The notes: generated by a model not told the origin, from the sequence alone. DNA of 64,000 nt from Minisyncoccia bacterium (GCA_041485465.1 JBGPJO010000001.1:102190-166189), one strand, 5' to 3'; numbered from the stretch's first letter, positions 25,727-62,184 are shown. Numbers and translations: made by a program.

Positions 25727-28177
25727 CTACAAACAAATGATTGAGGCAATTGAATCCCCCTGATAGAGCTTCATGACGCGCACCCCTTGGGTTGCGCGCG
25801 AGAGCGTCGGGATTTCTTTGAGGTCAACCCTAATCACCTGGCTTTTCTTTGAAATAGCAATGACTTCAGAATCGGGATTAAAGACGACTTTGCCGGTGAT
25901 AATCGCGCCGGTTTTAGGCGTGACTTTTGCGGTTTTGATGCCCGAGCCGCCGCGCTTCTGAATTTTATATTCTGTAAGAGACGTGCGTTTGCCGTATCCG
26001 TTATTGCTGATGACGAGAAGCTCCGGGGCTTCATATTCTTTACGAACAACCTCAGCGGCAACAACCGCATCTCCTTTTGCAATTTTAATGACACGAACTC
26101 CTCCCGCCGCTCTTCCCATTTCGCGCACATCGGACTCTTTGAAACGAATGGATTGCCCTTTTGAGCTTCCAATGATCACCGTATCCCCTTTTCCCACAAA
26201 AAATGCCGAGACAAGTGCGTCACCCGAATCAAGCTTGATTGCGATGATGCCGCTCCGTCTCACATCATGGAAATTTTTTGCCGCCGTTTTTTTACCCGTA
26301 CCGTTTTTGGTAACCATAAGAAGCGCCGCCTCGCTCTTTTTAATATCTTTCGACATGGGGAGAATCGAGGAAATTTTTTCGTCAGCGGTCAGTGAGAGGT
26401 AGTTCATGATCGACTTACCGCGCGTTGCGCGCCTGCCTTCCGGAATATCGTACATTTTTATCTTATAGACTTTGCCTTTGTCAGTGAAAAAGAGAAGATC
26501 GCTATGGGTTGAGGTCGTCAAAAACTGAGTGATAAAATCTTCTTCTTTGGTGTCAAGATCGATAACGCCAACGCCGCCTCTTTTTTGCTTGCGATATTCA
26601 TCCGGATTTGTCCGCTTAACATAGCCACCCGCCGTGTAGACCAAGACCGATTCTTCCTCCGGGACCAAATCTTCATCCGAGAGCGCTTTCACTGCGTGCT
26701 TTACGATTTTCGTCTTCCGCTCATCGCCGTATTTTTCCGAAATTTCTTTGAGCTCGTCTTTAATAACGGTCGAGATTTTTTTCGGACTTCCTAAAAGTTC
26801 TTTAAGCTCTCCAATAAGCACCTGCACTTCGCGGAGTTCATCTTCGATTTTTTTCCGCTCAAGTCCGGCAAGTCTCTGAAGCCGCATGTCGAGAATTGCG
26901 TTTGCCTGTAGCTCCGAGAATTTGAACTCTTTCATGAGCGCAAAGCGGGCCGTCTCAACGTCTTTCGATTTCTTGATCAGTTTTATAATTTCATCGATGT
27001 GGTCAAGCGCTTTTTTCAGTCCGAGAAGAATGTGTTCACGGCCTTCCGCTTGCCGTAAATCAAACTCGGTGCGGCGGCGAACGACGAGCTTCCGGTGTTT
27101 GATAAACTCCTCAAGAATTGATTTGAGAGAGAGCGTCTGCGGCACACCGTCGACAAGTGCCACCATGTTGTAATGAAAAGCCTCCTCAAGACGGGTGTGT
27201 TTATAGAGATAATTCAAAACCTTCTGTGGCTCGATCCCCTGCTTCAAATCAATCGCAATCCGAATGTCTCTCGTCGACTCATCCCGCAAGCCCTTAATGC
27301 CTTCAATTTTTTTATCACGCACCAAATCCGCAATCGACATGATGAGATCGGATTTGTTAACACGGAACGGAATTGAAGTAATGATAATTTGGTACACCCC
27401 TCCCTTGGTCTCAACAACATCTGCCTCGCCGCGAACAACCACTCCGCCTTTACCGTTTGCGTAGGCGTGATGAATGTCTTTTTCATTGTAGGCAATCCCC
27501 CCCATCGGAAAATCAGGACCTTTAATAAATTGGAGAAGCTCTTCGGTTGTCGCATCCGCATTATCTATAAGATGAATCGTTGCTTCCGAGACTTCTTTAA
27601 GATTGTGCGGCGGAATGTCGGACGCCATGCCAACCGCGATGCCCAAGGTGCCGTTTAAAAGAAGATTCGGAACAGAAGACGGTAAGACTATCGGCTCTTT
27701 GCGCGTCGAATCATAGTTCGGACGGAAACTGACGGTTTCTTTTTCAAGATCACGCAAAAGCTCTGCGGAGAGGCGCGACATTTTTGCCTCGGTATAGCGC
27801 ATCGCCGCGGCAGAGTCCCCATCAATTGAACCAAAGTTTCCCTGGCCGATTACGAGCGGGTAACGATAGGTAAAATTTTGTGCCATCTTTACCATCGCGT
27901 CATACACGGCAGTATCGCCGTGTGGGTGGTACTTTCCGAGAACATCTCCGACAATCGCGGCGGATTTTCTCTGTTTTGCGGACGCGGTAAGACCCATTTC
28001 CTGCATCGCAAAAAGAATGCGGCGATGAACCGGCTTGAAACCGTCGCGGACATCAGGAAGCGCACGTCCGGTAATAACGGACATGGCATAGTCAAGATAG
28101 CTCTCGCGCATTTCGGTTGAAATCGACCGCTCTAAGATGCCACGCTTTGCATCCTTTTTCTCCTCTTCTTTAGCCAT
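25727..28177 (-). CDS. gyrA: DNA gyrase subunit A
   Basis: [34 protein letters not shown], the [10 protein letters not shown] signature, and C-terminal beta-pinwheel repeats. Confidence 0.95.
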
Positions 28178-28546: not shown

Positions 28547-29178
28547 GAGGCGCTCGAAGTGAGCACGACGATATCGCCTTCCTTTCCTTCAAGATCCTTT
28601 TTCTTGATGGTCAGTTTTTCAATCTCCTCTCCTCCCCCTTCGCCTTCTTTAAGAAACGTTTTTAACGCGGCCTTTCCGGAAGCATCATCCCCATAATGCA
28701 TGGGAATAATGACGTGCGGCTCGATTGATACGGCGAGTTTGTAAGCTTCGGAAGCGTTTAAAACATCGCCACCGCCGATCGGCACGAAAAGAACATCAAC
28801 CTCTTCAAAAGCCGCTTTTGCCTCCTGCGGGATTTCTTTCGTCGAAAGAGCGCCCAAGAAACAAAGACTCATTCCCTCAAGAGACATAAAGTAGATTGTG
28901 TTGAATTTTCCCTCTTTGTTTTTTCCGCCAGGAAACCCTTTTATGAAAACTTCTTTAATTTCGTATTCGCCGGGACTGGAGATAACAAAGGGCTTCTTCT
29001 CGCCAAAAGTAACCTGTTCTATACCGTTTGTCTCTGTCGTATCAATGGAGATGAGAGTGATGTCAGCTCCGAATTTCGAACTCTTTAGCTTTGAATCTTT
29101 CGAGACGGGGTTAAAAGCGACAACCAAATCGCCGAATTGGACCTTGAAGAATTCATGGCCGAAATAGTTGATAACCAT
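28543..29178 (-). CDS. MBL-fold (Lactamase_B_3-like) protein with a substituted HxHxDH metal-binding motif
   Basis: Fold signature EVDVLFVPIGGGDVLNASEAYKLAVSIEPHVIIPMHYG, but the position expected for HGHGDH reads ADITLISIDTTETNG. Confidence 0.6.
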   Translation of the reverse strand: MVINYFGHEFFKVQFGDLVVAFNPVSKDSKLKSSKFGADITLISIDTTETNGIEQVTFGEKKPFVISSPGEYEIKEVFIKGFPGGKNKEGKFNTIYFMSLEGMSLCFLGALSTKEIPQEAKAAFEEVDVLFVPIGGGDVLNASEAYKLAVSIEPHVIIPMHYGDDASGKAALKTFLKEGEGGGEEIEKLTIKKKDLEGKEGDIVVLTSSAS

Positions 29179-29239
29179 AGGAGCACACTATACCATGTCA
29201 GTGGTATTATACCTAAAAATGGCTTTGTAAAGGCATATA

Positions 29240-29299
29240 TTGACAATTTATTTTAATTATTGTCTAACTATTGACACTACTTTAATAGTATGATAACAT
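29240..29299 (+). promoter_or_regulatory. Two sigma70-like promoters (TTGACA boxes at 29240 and 29271; -10 taacat at 29294) driving the GC-rich unit
   Basis: ttgacaatttattttaattattgtctaactattgacactactttaatagtatgataacat. Confidence 0.5.
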
Positions 29300-29346
29300 T
29301 TATGTACCGCTAATGGAGCGGCCGTTCATCAACAATGGAGGATCTC

Positions 29347-29478
29347 GTGATCCGAAATATTCGTGGTTCGCCGGCCTCGACCTCTACTGGCCACGCACAC
29401 TTCAATGCGAAAAACTTTTACTCCGACATCGATCATGTCGACACCACCGAGCACATCGGCGCCGCCGGCGACTTCTGA
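29347..29478 (+). other. Candidate small ORF (GTG start, 43 aa: MIRNIRGSPASTSTGHAHFNAKNFYSDIDHVDTTEHIGAAGDF) inside a GC-rich structured transcript
   Basis: GGAGGA 4 nt upstream of the GTG; followed by three consecutive hairpins and a T-run (29480-29605). Confidence 0.3.
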
Positions 29479-30010
29479 CGGTCGCGGCCGGCGGCCGGAT
29501 ATTCTGTCCGGCCACGCATTTCGATAGGCTTCCTTGGGAAGCCTCGGGTCCCGCTGGCTTGCTCCCGTAAGCCGGCGGGACTTCCCTCGCTGTTTTTATT
29601 GTTCTGTCAGTTACAACCTTGCTCAAAAAGCGGGGTTTTTTATTTTATCCACATTCACTATTCCACTATTTTTGTATAATTAAACAGTTCTTGATCACCA
29701 ACTTGAGGAAGTGCCCGTGAAGAAGCGCGATCCACCGTTCTCTTTCCTCAATAACAGGAATCTCTCACCCACCGAGAGGAGGTGATCTGCAATCTAGCGC
29801 AGAGCTTCTTGATTCTGCGCTCAAGCCCCGCCGCACTATGCGCGGCGGGGCTTTTTACTTTTCTCTGTACAAAACATAACAAATAAGTATACTGGGAACC
29901 TGCCTCTTCGAGGCATTTATTAATAACGGCCGGCGCAAATTCGCGTTAAGGCATGAAGTAGCCCCTGCTCACACCTACTATGATCAATCGGCAGGAACTT
30001 CAAAGAAATC

Positions 30011-31165
30011 ATGGAAGAAGAAATAAAAAATAGTACTATTCTAACTACTGAGATTCTCACCCAAGACCAAAAAGAAGAGGGAGACGAAGAAAAGAAAAAT
30101 AAGAAAGAGGGCCCGATGACGGCGCTTCTTCACGAAACCAAAAACCCGCCTATCGTCGGGGACCTGGTCGAGGGAGCAGTTATTGCGATTGACAAATCAT
30201 CAATCTTCGTCGACCTGCCACCCTTTGGTACCGGCATTATCTATGGCAGGGAGTATTTAAATGCTCGCGACATTCTCCGCCGCGTCAATATCGGCGATAA
30301 TATCGCCGCCAAAGTCGTCGAAACAGAAAACAACGACGGCTATATCGAGCTTTCCCTTAAAGAAGCGAGGCAAGCACTCATTTGGAGCGAGGCTGAAGAC
30401 ATTATCCGTGAAAAAAGAATCCTTGAACTGCCCGTTAAAGACGCGAACAAAGGCGGTCTCATTCTCGAATGGCAAGGCATTCAGGGTTTCCTCCCCGCCT
30501 CCCAACTCAAAAGCGAACACTATCCACGGGTTGACGACGGCGATAAAGACAAGATCTATGAAGAACTGAAAAAGCTTGTCGGTACGATGCTTCCGGTCAC
30601 GATTATCGGCGCAACCCCGAAAGAAGGAAAGCTTATTTTCTCTGAAAAAAGTCCTAACCAAAAAGAGAAGCGTGAAATCATCGAGAAATACGGAATTGGT
30701 GAAGTGCTCGAAGGCGTTGTCACCGGCATTGTCGATTTCGGCGTGTTTGTCAAAGTCGAAGAGGGGCTCGAAGGGCTCGTCCATATTTCAGAGATCGACT
30801 GGGGGCTTGTCGATGACCCGCGGAATTTCTTCAAGGTGGGAGATATAGTGAAAGTCAAAGTCATCGAGATCAAAGACGGAAAGATAAGTTTGTCCGTGAA
30901 AGCGCTTAAAGAAAATCCCTGGATGGACGCGGAAAAGAAATACAAGAAAGACGACGAAGTTGAGGGTGTTGTCATCAAATTCAACAAACATGGCGCGCTT
31001 GCATCGATTGAAGAAGGGGTCGCGGGGCTCGTTCATGTTTCGGAGTTCGGCTCGGAAGAAAAATTGCGCGAAACACTCGAGCTCGGCAAATCCTACAAAT
31101 TTAAAATCACCCTCTTTGAGCCGATAGAACAAAAAATGGCCCTTTCGTTTGTCGAAGGGAAATAA
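30011..31165 (+). CDS. rpsA: 30S ribosomal protein S1 (four S1 domains); alternative start at Met 30116
   Basis: Repeated S1 domains (GDLVEGAVIAID.., GEVLEGVVTGIVDFGVFVKV.., DEVEGVVIKF..). Confidence 0.85.
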   Translation: MEEEIKNSTILTTEILTQDQKEEGDEEKKNKKEGPMTALLHETKNPPIVGDLVEGAVIAIDKSSIFVDLPPFGTGIIYGREYLNARDILRRVNIGDNIAAKVVETENNDGYIELSLKEARQALIWSEAEDIIREKRILELPVKDANKGGLILEWQGIQGFLPASQLKSEHYPRVDDGDKDKIYEELKKLVGTMLPVTIIGATPKEGKLIFSEKSPNQKEKREIIEKYGIGEVLEGVVTGIVDFGVFVKVEEGLEGLVHISEIDWGLVDDPRNFFKVGDIVKVKVIEIKDGKISLSVKALKENPWMDAEKKYKKDDEVEGVVIKFNKHGALASIEEGVAGLVHVSEFGSEEKLRETLELGKSYKFKITLFEPIEQKMALSFVEGK

Positions 31166-39345: not shown

Positions 39346-39945
39346 TTGGAGATGTTTGAAAGAAAACAAGCTGCCGTTCCGGTGATTCCCCTACAACGTC
39401 CGACTCCGCGTTTGGCGATCGTTGGAAGCGAATTGCTCGGTCCATATGAGGCGATTGCACGGGAATTGAACTACAGTCCCGCCCATCTCCTCCAAGAGCA
39501 ACTGCTTCGGTTTCTCGCGGAGAACCAGATCCAGATCTACGATTACGATGCGGTCGACCATTATTTGGCCGCCATTGCCGAGAAGGTCGGAAAGGTTTGG
39601 GTCTGGCGCCCGTTGCGCAAGCAAGACACGCTGGACTGGAAGAATGAAAATGGCCACTGCCATTGGTGGGGACGAGCGCCAACCGGCGAGACAGGCCATG
39701 TGACCGCGGGCCACGGCAGTTGTCGGGCCAATGAGTGGACCTATCGTCCGTATCATCATGCAGTACCAGCGCCAATCCTGTGGAACGCCAAAAAAATCCA
39801 CGACGAATTCGGCGAGCGCGTGAAGTTCTTCGTCAGCGACTATGCCGTTCCAAAGCCCGATCCGTTCATCATGGTGACAGCACAGGACGTCGACAAGATC
39901 ATCTTCGGCGTCTGGGACGAACCAAGTTTCGGCACCAACAATTGA
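39346..39945 (+). CDS. Hypothetical protein in a GC-rich (about 55-58%) segment, probably horizontally acquired
   Basis: RBS ggag 4 nt upstream of the ATG; composition differs from flanking DNA (about 43-48% GC); no recognisable domain (WVWRPLRKQD..NGHCHWWG..). Confidence 0.4.
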   Translation: MEMFERKQAAVPVIPLQRPTPRLAIVGSELLGPYEAIARELNYSPAHLLQEQLLRFLAENQIQIYDYDAVDHYLAAIAEKVGKVWVWRPLRKQDTLDWKNENGHCHWWGRAPTGETGHVTAGHGSCRANEWTYRPYHHAVPAPILWNAKKIHDEFGERVKFFVSDYAVPKPDPFIMVTAQDVDKIIFGVWDEPSFGTNN

Positions 39946-53892: not shown

Positions 53893-54235
53893 GTTCTTTG
53901 CTGAATGGTCGCCGTGCGTCATAAGCGTATGGAGGAAAGTCCGAACACAGCCGTCGCGAAAGTGGCGGAGCAGGGTAGCGGGTAACGCCCGTCCACCGCA
54001 AGGTGCGAGATGCGAACAGTGACGCCTGAAGCGAAAGTCTAAGGCACCCCTTCGGGGTGAACCCTATGGTAACTTAGGGAGTGAAACGGCAAAACTCTTA
54101 CCTCTGTGCAAGGCCGTGTCCGCCGCAAGGCGGAAGTGCCGCTTGAGCCCGAGAGCAATCGAGGGCCTAGATAAATGACTATTCACGCTCCGCCTAAGGC
54201 GGGGCGAGACAGAATTCGGCTTATAGGTAAAGAAC
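53893..54235 (+). ncRNA. rnpB: RNase P RNA (bacterial type A-like)
   Basis: GGAGGAAAGUCCGAACACAG, GCAGGGUAGCGGGUAACGCCCG, ACAGAAUUCGGCUUAUAGG; 5' gttctttgc pairs with 3' gtaaagaac (P1). Confidence 0.85.
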
Positions 54236-54241
54236 ATAATG

Positions 54242-58814: not shown

Positions 58815-59066
58815 ATGGGAGGAGAAGCTGTGCAAACTCCTAAGGAAAATGTCCTAAAGCGTGTGAGAGTATCTCTTACGCTCATCACCATAATCACACT
58901 CGGAGTTTGGGGAGTTGAGATGCTCGGAATGTACCTGAAGTGGTGGCATTCTTTCGGCCACATAGGCCCGGGTTTACCCACCGGCCTCACGCTATTTTAC
59001 GGAAGCATGGGAGTGGTTTGGATTTACAGCCGCTTCGATAAAAAAATGTTTTGGAAAGAACAATAA
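58815..59066 (+). CDS. Hypothetical small membrane protein
   Basis: Two hydrophobic helices; followed by a terminator hairpin at 59082-59111. Confidence 0.4.
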   Translation: MGGEAVQTPKENVLKRVRVSLTLITIITLGVWGVEMLGMYLKWWHSFGHIGPGLPTGLTLFYGSMGVVWIYSRFDKKMFWKEQ

Positions 59067-61898: not shown

Positions 61899-62129
61899 AT
61901 GCAGATCGTGACTCTCGTACTGCCGTACGCCCAGATCGCACTTGCGGTCACCCTCGGCCTCGGCATTCTTCTCCAGCAGCGCGGAGCAGGGCTCGGTGGC
62001 GCTTTCGGCGCGGGAGATGGATTCGGATTCAATACCCGCAGAGGTGCGGAAAAAATCCTTTTCAATGTGACGATTGTGATCGGCATTCTTTTCCTGATCT
62101 CAACACTTATCGCTCTCATTATCAAATAA
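61899..62129 (+). CDS. secG: Preprotein translocase subunit SecG
   Basis: 76 aa, two TM helices, LLQQRGAGLGGAFGAGDGFGF glycine-rich loop typical of SecG. Confidence 0.75.
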   Translation: MQIVTLVLPYAQIALAVTLGLGILLQQRGAGLGGAFGAGDGFGFNTRRGAEKILFNVTIVIGILFLISTLIALIIK

Positions 62130-62184
62130 CCAGAAACACGGGCACTATCCCTTTTTCTCTCGTCTTTCTCTTGCTTCTTTTTCC

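Follow-up and report, generated by a model that had tools for sequence, protein, structure and literature searches.

Small-open-reading-frame (small-ORF) regulatory RNAs are exemplified by RNAIII/hld of Staphylococcus aureus, SR1/SR1P of Bacillus subtilis and SgrS/SgrT of Escherichia coli, whose ORFs encode 26–43 amino acids (aa). Stabilized mRNAs are exemplified by the 5′ untranslated region (5′ UTR) of E. coli ompA, the aprE leader of B. subtilis and the STAB-SD of Bacillus thuringiensis cryIIIA. In the Patescibacteria, or candidate phyla radiation (CPR), genomes are tiny and about half of the genes lack an assigned function; to our knowledge, their small proteins and regulatory RNAs are almost unexplored, as the organisms are uncultivated. 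Here we analyse unit A, a GC-rich unit at positions 29240–29645 of a 64-kb window of CPR DNA (Minisyncoccia bacterium, GCA_041485465.1, JBGPJO010000001.1:102190–166189), located in the spacer between a metallo-β-lactamase (MBL)-fold gene and rpsA. Unit A is probably a monocistronic, strongly promoted small-ORF mRNA whose product is a 43-aa peptide. Like RNAIII/hld, SR1/SR1P and SgrS/SgrT, it would be a short independent transcript in which several stable hairpins and an intrinsic terminator come after a 5′-proximal ORF, and like them it has mostly been missed by annotation.

The unit stands out by its base composition. The GC content is 46.5% across the window, 56% at 29300–29640 and 60% at 29347–29600, and a 150-nt peak in unit A (0.687) is the maximum across the whole 64 kb. 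These values bear out the figure of about 60% given in an earlier note on this DNA, and its description of the segment as far more GC-rich than the genome is fair for the core. The reading of unit A as an independent transcription unit, again in line with the earlier note, is supported.

The main sigma-70-type promoter is predicted on the plus strand at 29271–29299, with TTGACA at 29271–29276, a 17-nt spacer and a TG-extended −10 hexamer, TAACAT, at 29294–29299; the promoter scan counted 10 of 12 consensus matches, and the predicted transcription start lies at about 29306. The second TTGACA that had been noted, a −35-like hexamer at 29240–29245 (plus strand), is also present, with only a weak −10, and was missed by the promoter scan. 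It occurs at the equivalent place in six related loci (L026, L028, L029, L034, L037 and L040) and as TTGACT in L030; the tandem arrangement is seen in relatives as well. Directly 5′ of this first TTGACA lies an imperfect inverted repeat, ATGGC-N8-GGCAT (29219–29236, no strand assigned), whose form in relatives is AyGGC-N8-GCCrT, perfect over 5 bp in L028, L029 and L030; it may act as an operator or belong to the 5′ UTR of the divergent MBL gene. On the minus strand, the MBL-fold gene has a promoter-like site with its −35 at 29277–29272, overlapping the unit A −35 back to back, and its start codon (29179–29277 region) is preceded by CUCCU, not by a Shine–Dalgarno (SD) sequence.

The predicted RNA begins with a 5′-terminal stem-loop, CCGCU-AAUGG-AGCGG (29307–29321, plus strand), followed by CGTTCATCAACA. 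A 5′-proximal hairpin of unrelated sequence is clear in eight relatives (L026, L028, L029, L034, L037, L038, L039 and L040) and weak or unclear in L030 and L017. The strong ribosome-binding site described earlier is present: an SD sequence, GGAGGA, at 29337–29342 (plus strand), 4 nt 5′ of a GTG at 29347. This GTG opens the small ORF (29347–29478, plus strand; 43 codons plus UGA), which encodes (M)IRNIRGSPASTSTGHAHFNAKNFYSDIDHVDTTEHIGAAGDF. An in-frame ATG at 29335 would give an alternative 47-aa product. We favour the GTG, because the ATG of the counterpart ATGrAGGA element is out of frame with the ORF in L026 and L029, and the element therefore acts there as an SD and not as a start; the N terminus read from the GTG, (M)IRNIR, lines up with MRRNKR of L040 and MRNLGF of L030. 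SD-like sequences stand 4–9 nt 5′ of most counterpart starts and are weak in L028.

At this GC content chance alone should produce open frames of about 45 codons, and the mere presence of one proves nothing; we therefore tested for codon periodicity. Several lines of evidence indicate that the GTG-start ORF, whose existence had already been noted, is most likely a real coding sequence.

First, the codon-usage z score in the ORF frame is 3.08, compared with 0.55 and 1.25 in the other frames and 3.32 ± 0.53 for real genes. The GC fractions at the three codon positions (GC1/2/3) are 0.55/0.43/0.70, and a GC3 of 0.69 is matched by just 1.3% of equal-size chunks of the window's genes. Among small ORFs outside long ORFs in the 64 kb, an SD combined with GC3 periodicity was found only in the unit A ORF and one weaker case. 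The latter, at 58920–59066, encodes a hydrophobic product of 48 aa (MLGMYLKWWHSFGHIGPGLPTGLTLFYGSMGVVWIYSRFDKKMFWKEQ) and may be an unannotated small membrane protein.

Second, GC3-rich periodicity recurs in 8 of the 10 loci tested, with single-locus P values from 1.4e-8 to 5e-3 in the counterparts: L017 (GC1/2/3 0.47/0.37/0.92, P = 1.4e-8), L028 (0.49/0.56/0.93, P = 2e-5), L034 (0.52/0.52/0.89, P = 1.1e-4), L037 (0.36/0.36/0.84, P = 4.6e-4), L029 (0.69/0.40/0.83, P = 7.3e-4), L040 (0.55/0.55/0.84, P = 1.6e-3) and L030 (0.63/0.46/0.83, P = 5.3e-3). In L004 the periodicity is not significant. Pooled, the small ORFs give 0.53/0.49/0.84 (χ2 = 101, P = 1e-22).

Third, the signal is confined to the ORF. 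In 48 control frames, stop-free over at least 25 codons and taken from the 3′ domains, GC1/2/3 is 0.59/0.59/0.59 and none has a GC3–GC2 difference of at least 0.25. In a sliding scan, the periodic signal of each locus coincides exactly with the small ORF and is absent from the tail, and the 3′ domain of the window has no codon periodicity.

Fourth, predicted structure is distributed the other way round. The fold z scores of the ORFs range from −1.7 to +2.0 and those of the 3′ domains from −3.5 to −9.0, in 9 of 9 loci; in this test the window's 3′ domain scores −4.2 and those of the eight other loci −3.5 to −9.0. Compared with shuffled sequences, unit A as a whole has z = −6.4; this excess is due entirely to the sequence after the stop codon (z = −5.0), the ORF part being unremarkable (−1.55).

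These data bear directly on the suggestion that unit A is a structured non-coding RNA, which the earlier note had offered as an alternative. As an account of the part after the stop codon the suggestion stands; as the sole explanation it does not, given a periodicity confined to the ORF. That the whole of unit A is a purely non-coding RNA of about 340 nt, with the ORF a chance frame, would fit the whole-unit fold score, the chance expectation of ORFs of this length at 60–70% GC and a peptide without a family. It is nonetheless highly improbable: the periodicity appears in the ORFs of 8 of the 10 loci and is absent from the 48 control frames, the ORF segment is the only part without excess structure, and a start codon with a correctly spaced SD is conserved.

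Related loci were gathered through rpsA and through the MBL protein. The host is a member of the Patescibacteria, the nearest relatives of the flanking proteins being labelled Paceibacterota, Patescibacteria or Taylorbacteria. A near-identical contig is known (JBGPTD010000055 of GCA_041490425.1; L001); in the nearest other lineage the MBL protein is 81% identical, and in relatives, where measured, 64–81%. Searches with blastn and nhmmer against all fetched loci returned no alignable unit A beyond the same strain. The same layout in the same slot is found in eight loci (L017, L026, L028, L029, L030, L034, L037 and L040), with a distant version in L004. The conserved order runs from the AyGGC-N8-GCCrT repeat through two TTGACA promoters (in most loci), the 5′ stem-loop, often CGTTCAT, and an SD-like element (ATGrAGGA in several loci) to an ORF of 25–51 codons, then a GC clamp, 91–522 nt of GC-rich hairpins and a terminator. 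The ORF is at the same position in nine relatives, and their amino-acid sequences are barely above shuffle similarity. Nine of the 10 small ORFs examined end in UGA (L017 in TAG), and in 7 of those 9 the next base is C; the stop lies 0–8 nt from the conserved GC clamp. Unit A stays beside the MBL gene in L038 and L039, where rpsA is not a neighbour. A tight sister group (L003, L016/L032/L033 and L035) has a spacer of 360–410 bp without unit A.

Judged by these comparisons, unit A is an old, syntenic feature that one sub-lineage has probably lost. Because relatives carry it, equally GC-rich, in the matching syntenic position, its GC-richness reads as a maintained property, not as a sign of recent transfer. 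The earlier note had raised a horizontally acquired gene, possibly for a precursor resembling ribosomally synthesized and post-translationally modified peptides (RiPPs), and such an origin, or that of a bacteriocin precursor, might have been guessed from a GC content well above that of the genome and from a small, Thr/Asp-rich peptide of hypervariable sequence. Neither part found support, and we regard this origin as scarcely credible. The GC-rich slot is shared with relatives whose MBL proteins are 64–81% identical where measured, and similarity to phages or plasmids was limited to blastn matches of 27–37 nt of the kind expected by chance. The peptide has no Cys, no conserved leader or core motif and no Pfam or NCBIfam match, and no RiPP maturation enzyme, peptidase or exporter occurs among the called neighbours in the window and its relatives. 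By eye, no consistent motif of a double-glycine leader, graspetide or lasso-type precursor was seen, nor were partner enzymes nearby.

The predicted peptide is hydrophilic and rich in His, Asp, Thr, Asn, Gly, Ile and Val, with no signal peptide, membrane segment or hydrophobic stretch. Over 3,992 nt, the two sequenced strains differ at a single site, 29474 (T>A), where the final residue becomes Y instead of F. Across loci, the peptides are alike in composition and nearly unrelated in sequence. The local alignment of the window and L040 peptides scores above shuffles at P = 0.013, and these two share, by eye from the alignment, MxRNxR near the N terminus and HIG near the C terminus; (T/H)IG followed by acidic residues recurs by eye as a fragment that is statistically insecure. 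In L017 (1524–1709), the 51-codon ORF stops at TAG, and its in-frame extension IPAAGDPNT* resembles the window's C terminus, IGAAGDF*; a recent nonsense change, read-through or coincidence are all possible.

Database searches found no relatives of the peptide. A word-indexed search of 5.8e9 proteins returned the same strain only, and a full phmmer search of 1.84e9 representatives returned the same strain and one further protein, P0002, a T/D/V-rich repeat protein that we rejected as a compositional match. A profile built from eight family peptides recovered only same-strain or seed sequences, and seven family peptides had no match in Pfam or NCBIfam at E ≤ 10.

Annotation of the ORF is patchy. 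It appears as a 47-aa gene in GCA_041490425.1 and was called by gene callers in four assemblies; across its clade, Paceibacteria-like Patescibacteria, most gene callers miss the gene. Two pipeline calls at related loci are wrong. In L040 (1989–2303), the 104-aa call follows an Arg-rich frame in which GC is flat across the codon positions, and it is a 51-aa ORF that shows the periodicity; in L037 (2746–2889), the 47-aa call begins inside the −10 box.

Downstream of the ORF, the structured 3′ domain (29479–29582, plus strand) contains three GC hairpins. The three consecutive stable hairpins that the earlier note had placed here are all predicted, at 29493–29513 (hairpin 1, 9 bp), 29522–29546 (hairpin 2, with an 8-bp core, GGCUUCC/GGAAGCC) and 29547–29582 (hairpin 3, 16 bp), all on the plus strand. 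A GCCGGCG-type palindromic motif lies at and just past the stop codon, and the GC-clamp motif CGCCGGCG is found in 6 of 9 loci, compared with a maximum of 4 in shuffles. A mostly unpaired, pyrimidine-rich linker (..CUUCCCUCGCUGUUUUUAUUGUUCUGUCAG..; 29583–29614, plus strand) follows; linkers of the UUGUUCUU type are visible by eye in L028, L030, L037 and L040. Of the T-run terminator reported near 29600, a weak version exists, a terminator-like hairpin at 29573–29592 (plus strand) that ends in the linker's first bases and is followed by a T-run at 29593–29597 within the linker. The stronger one lies slightly downstream: an intrinsic terminator at 29615–29643 (plus strand), with a 9-bp stem (AACCUUGCU/AGCGGGGUU) and a U-run, which marks the end of unit A. 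A terminator stands at the equivalent place in all relatives.

The prominence of this tail raises the possibility of a dual-function RNA, one that encodes the peptide and also has a regulatory or protein-binding role, exerted by the hairpin-rich 3′ domain and the linker, in the manner of RNAIII/hld, SR1/SR1P and SgrS/SgrT. We consider this unlikely, although not lightly dismissed: in all nine loci the 3′ domains fold far beyond chance expectation, and they reach 300–520 nt in relatives, a U/C-rich unpaired linker separates the last big hairpin from the terminator in five loci, and GCCGGCG is conserved at the stop codon. Set against this, the 3′ domains cannot be aligned with one another and vary five-fold in length, and we found neither a conserved seed or loop motif nor an Rfam match. 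Pairing with the core of unit B, a second predicted mini-transcript downstream and the sole candidate target tested, was at chance level (z about 0 in eight loci).

As a separate observation, the long versions of unit A in L029 (spacer 366–410), L034 (505–550) and L030 (about 515–560) contain a second strong SD in the tail. It precedes a mini-ORF of 10–12 codons (MLKIVPSHAGV, MLKIAASAQV and MKVLGIGLQPTL) that is absent from the window's short version.

The proximity of the stop codon to the hairpins also brings to mind a regulatory leader ORF, in which translation or pausing at UGA(C) would remodel the hairpins and set read-through into unit B and rpsA. An almost unconstrained peptide sequence fits such a role, as do the UGA of 9 of the 10 ORFs, mostly UGAC and 0–8 nt from the GC clamp, and the overlap of the 3′ strand of the 16-bp hairpin with the weak alternative terminator hairpin at 29573–29592. 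However, the stronger second terminator at 29615–29643 comes next in any case, unit B and rpsA are each served by a conserved promoter of their own, unit A persists beside the MBL gene without an adjacent rpsA (L038 and L039), and the strong periodicity of GC3 against GC1/2 implies selection on the encoded amino-acid composition. We therefore judge a leader role very unlikely; with two successive terminator-like sites and independently promoted downstream units, the arrangement departs from that of a leader-peptide attenuator.

Several other identities were examined and set aside. No known RNA family explains the region: Rfam 15 gave no match at the gathering threshold in 29150–30050, and none in a scan of six related loci. 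In E-value mode only sub-threshold chance matches appeared (Trp_leader, 21 bits against a threshold of 41, E = 0.15; BTH_s1, 20.5 against 74). A transfer-messenger RNA (tmRNA) was rejected, with ARAGORN reporting 14 tRNAs and no tmRNA in the window and Rfam giving no tmRNA match; by eye, unit A contains no tRNA-like acceptor or T-arm, alanine resume codon or proteolysis-type tag ending. An interspersed repeat, miniature inverted-repeat transposable element (MITE) or repetitive extragenic palindromic (REP) element was rejected because unit A has no second copy within the window. A type I toxin–antitoxin system was likewise rejected: the peptide is hydrophilic, and no antisense promoter-like site lies inside 29300–29645.

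Several observations weigh against unit A being a peptide-coding mRNA. Open frames of this length occur by chance in GC-rich DNA, and the periodicity of the window's own ORF is the weakest of the set (P = 0.026 over 47 codons and 0.12 over 42 codons), with that of L026 not significant at all. The reduced forms in L038 and L039 have tiny ORFs only. Pairwise similarity of the peptides to one another, compared with shuffles, has a best z of 2.7 and a mean of 0.38, and BLASTP gave no match, so that their putative homology is based mainly on position and layout. Finally, tails of 300–520 nt with z down to −9 exceed what a stabilizer or terminator needs, and the RNA of unit A may have a role of its own.

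On balance, we prefer the reading of unit A as a small-ORF mRNA, which would operate as follows. Transcription would start from the TG-extended TTGACA promoter, with the second TTGACA upstream, back to back with the MBL-gene promoter. The RNA would begin with the 5′ stem-loop and then offer GGAGGA and the GTG in an otherwise unstructured stretch. Translation would yield a 43-residue, hydrophilic, His/Asp/Thr-rich cytoplasmic peptide and end at a UGA directly before the GC clamp. The last 165 nt would fold into three stable GC hairpins, the pyrimidine-rich linker and the intrinsic terminator, and the 3′ array and 5′ stem-loop together would protect a very short mRNA, with transcription ending before the next promoter. 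Long mRNA life and termination before that promoter are most likely the role of the 3′ array, and a further RNA-level function is possible. We infer that unit A is transcribed and translated, that the peptide itself, and not the act of translating, is the product, and that the 5′ and 3′ structures are stabilizing.

Between unit A and rpsA, two further elements were found. At 29645–29653, past the terminator of unit A and ahead of the promoter of unit B, lies the sole perfect DnaA box of the 64 kb, TTATCCACA. The box is conserved in five loci. L017, L026, L029 and L030 have the identical sequence, and L028 and L034 differ from it at one base. A replication origin was rejected: there is no box cluster, one-mismatch boxes in the window are at chance frequency (12 observed compared with 10.5 expected) and there is no GC-skew turn. 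The box may mark a DnaA-regulated promoter.

Unit B, at about 29690–29860, has its own −10 (TATAAT, 29676–29681) and a fold z of −5. It contains a 22-codon mini-ORF from a GTG at 29717 (MKKRDPPF..., MKKRDPPFSFLNNRNLSPTERR), a core at 29777–29789 (AGGAGGTGATC) that overlaps the UGA in the window, and a hairpin followed by a terminator at 29823–29853. The consensus yCUGA-AGGGAGGUGAUCC is found in 11 related loci, among them those without unit A. Its element AGGAGGUGAUC is a candidate anti-16S element; compared with the universal 16S tail, the host rRNA lying outside the window, the core would pair with up to 15 nt of the 16S rRNA 3′ end. No canonical start codon follows the core. Situated upstream of rpsA, unit B might act as a decoy or sensor that binds 30S subunits, and it may be more unusual than unit A. 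L030 and L031, two assemblies from one lineage, are identical over 1,197 nt of spacer save for 12 substitutions clustered within 83 nt (spacer 988–1070) downstream of the unit B core; the cluster may reflect local recombination or a chimeric assembly.

The rpsA gene itself has a conserved promoter-like site, TGTACA-16-TATACT, within 29866–30010, and its 5′ UTR has blocks in common with relatives: AAGTATACT, a GCCTCT..AGAGGC hairpin and GAAGTAaCCCcTGC. No SD precedes the ATG. In this the leader resembles that of E. coli rpsA, which lacks an SD and is autoregulated. A bolder picture would join these parts into a CPR-specific dual-function RNA, in which the ORF and the fast-evolving 3′ domain serve, with unit B, complementary to 13–15 nt of the 16S rRNA 3′ end, and with the DnaA box, as a sensor or regulator of translation capacity whose output is rpsA and/or the MBL-fold gene; we think this quite unlikely.

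The wider neighbourhood comprises gyrA (25727–28177, minus strand), a 104-aa membrane protein gene (minus strand) between gyrA and the MBL-fold gene, the MBL-fold hydrolase gene itself (PF13483; 28543–29178, minus strand), an 832-bp MBL–rpsA spacer, rpsA (30011–31165, plus strand) and, beyond it, pth (minus strand); a signal peptidase gene is also among the called neighbours of unit A. Elsewhere in the window, a GC-rich ORF of about 197 aa (39353–39945; up to 63% GC) comes with an SD and a terminator of its own and may be a foreign or accessory gene. At 61901–62130, a GC-rich ORF for a 76-aa membrane protein (MQIVTLVLPYAQIALAVTLGLGILLQQRGAGLGG...) is, by eye, a SecG-like candidate. Another GC peak of the window, at 53893–54239, is the bacterial class A RNase P RNA (112 bits, E = 1.7e-33).

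Unit A is thus ordinary in kind: a lineage-restricted, mostly unannotated small gene without a known family. For the present it amounts to a sound correction of the annotation and is no surprise. It exemplifies a strongly promoted small gene that pipelines skip or call in the wrong frame, and it suggests a search recipe, namely to scan AT-leaning genomes for GC islands whose codon periodicity is restricted to a short frame and whose excess folding is restricted to the tail. Literature searches gave no account of comparable small genes or RNAs from CPR bacteria. Should either the peptide or the RNA tail be functional, unit A would be among the first lineage-specific small-gene families defined in the CPR radiation.

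Set beside known systems, unit A resembles each in part. It is similar to tmRNA (ssrA) in being GC-rich and about 340 nt long, with a short internal frame and many hairpins, and differs in having no ARAGORN or Rfam tmRNA match in the window. As in the trp, thr and his leaders and tnaC, a small ORF with a poorly conserved peptide stands directly before alternative hairpins and a T-run, and, as in tnaC, the UGA stop is in a weak context. Unlike leader attenuators, the ORF has no runs of regulatory codons and is 2–3 times the typical leader length, the Trp_leader match is sub-threshold, and there is a second terminator, with independent promoters downstream. From RNAIII/hld, SR1/SR1P and SgrS/SgrT, which it recalls in layout, unit A is set apart by the absence of sequence or Rfam similarity, by a 3′ domain that varies in sequence and length among relatives and by its CPR host. 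The ompA, aprE and cryIIIA leaders belong to long genes, whereas the unit A message is about 340 nt, half of it 3′ structure. With them unit A shares a stem-loop at the extreme 5′ end and a strong SD, joined to a GC-rich, hairpin-dense 3′ end; by analogy, this design is what would be expected of a long-lived, highly expressed message.

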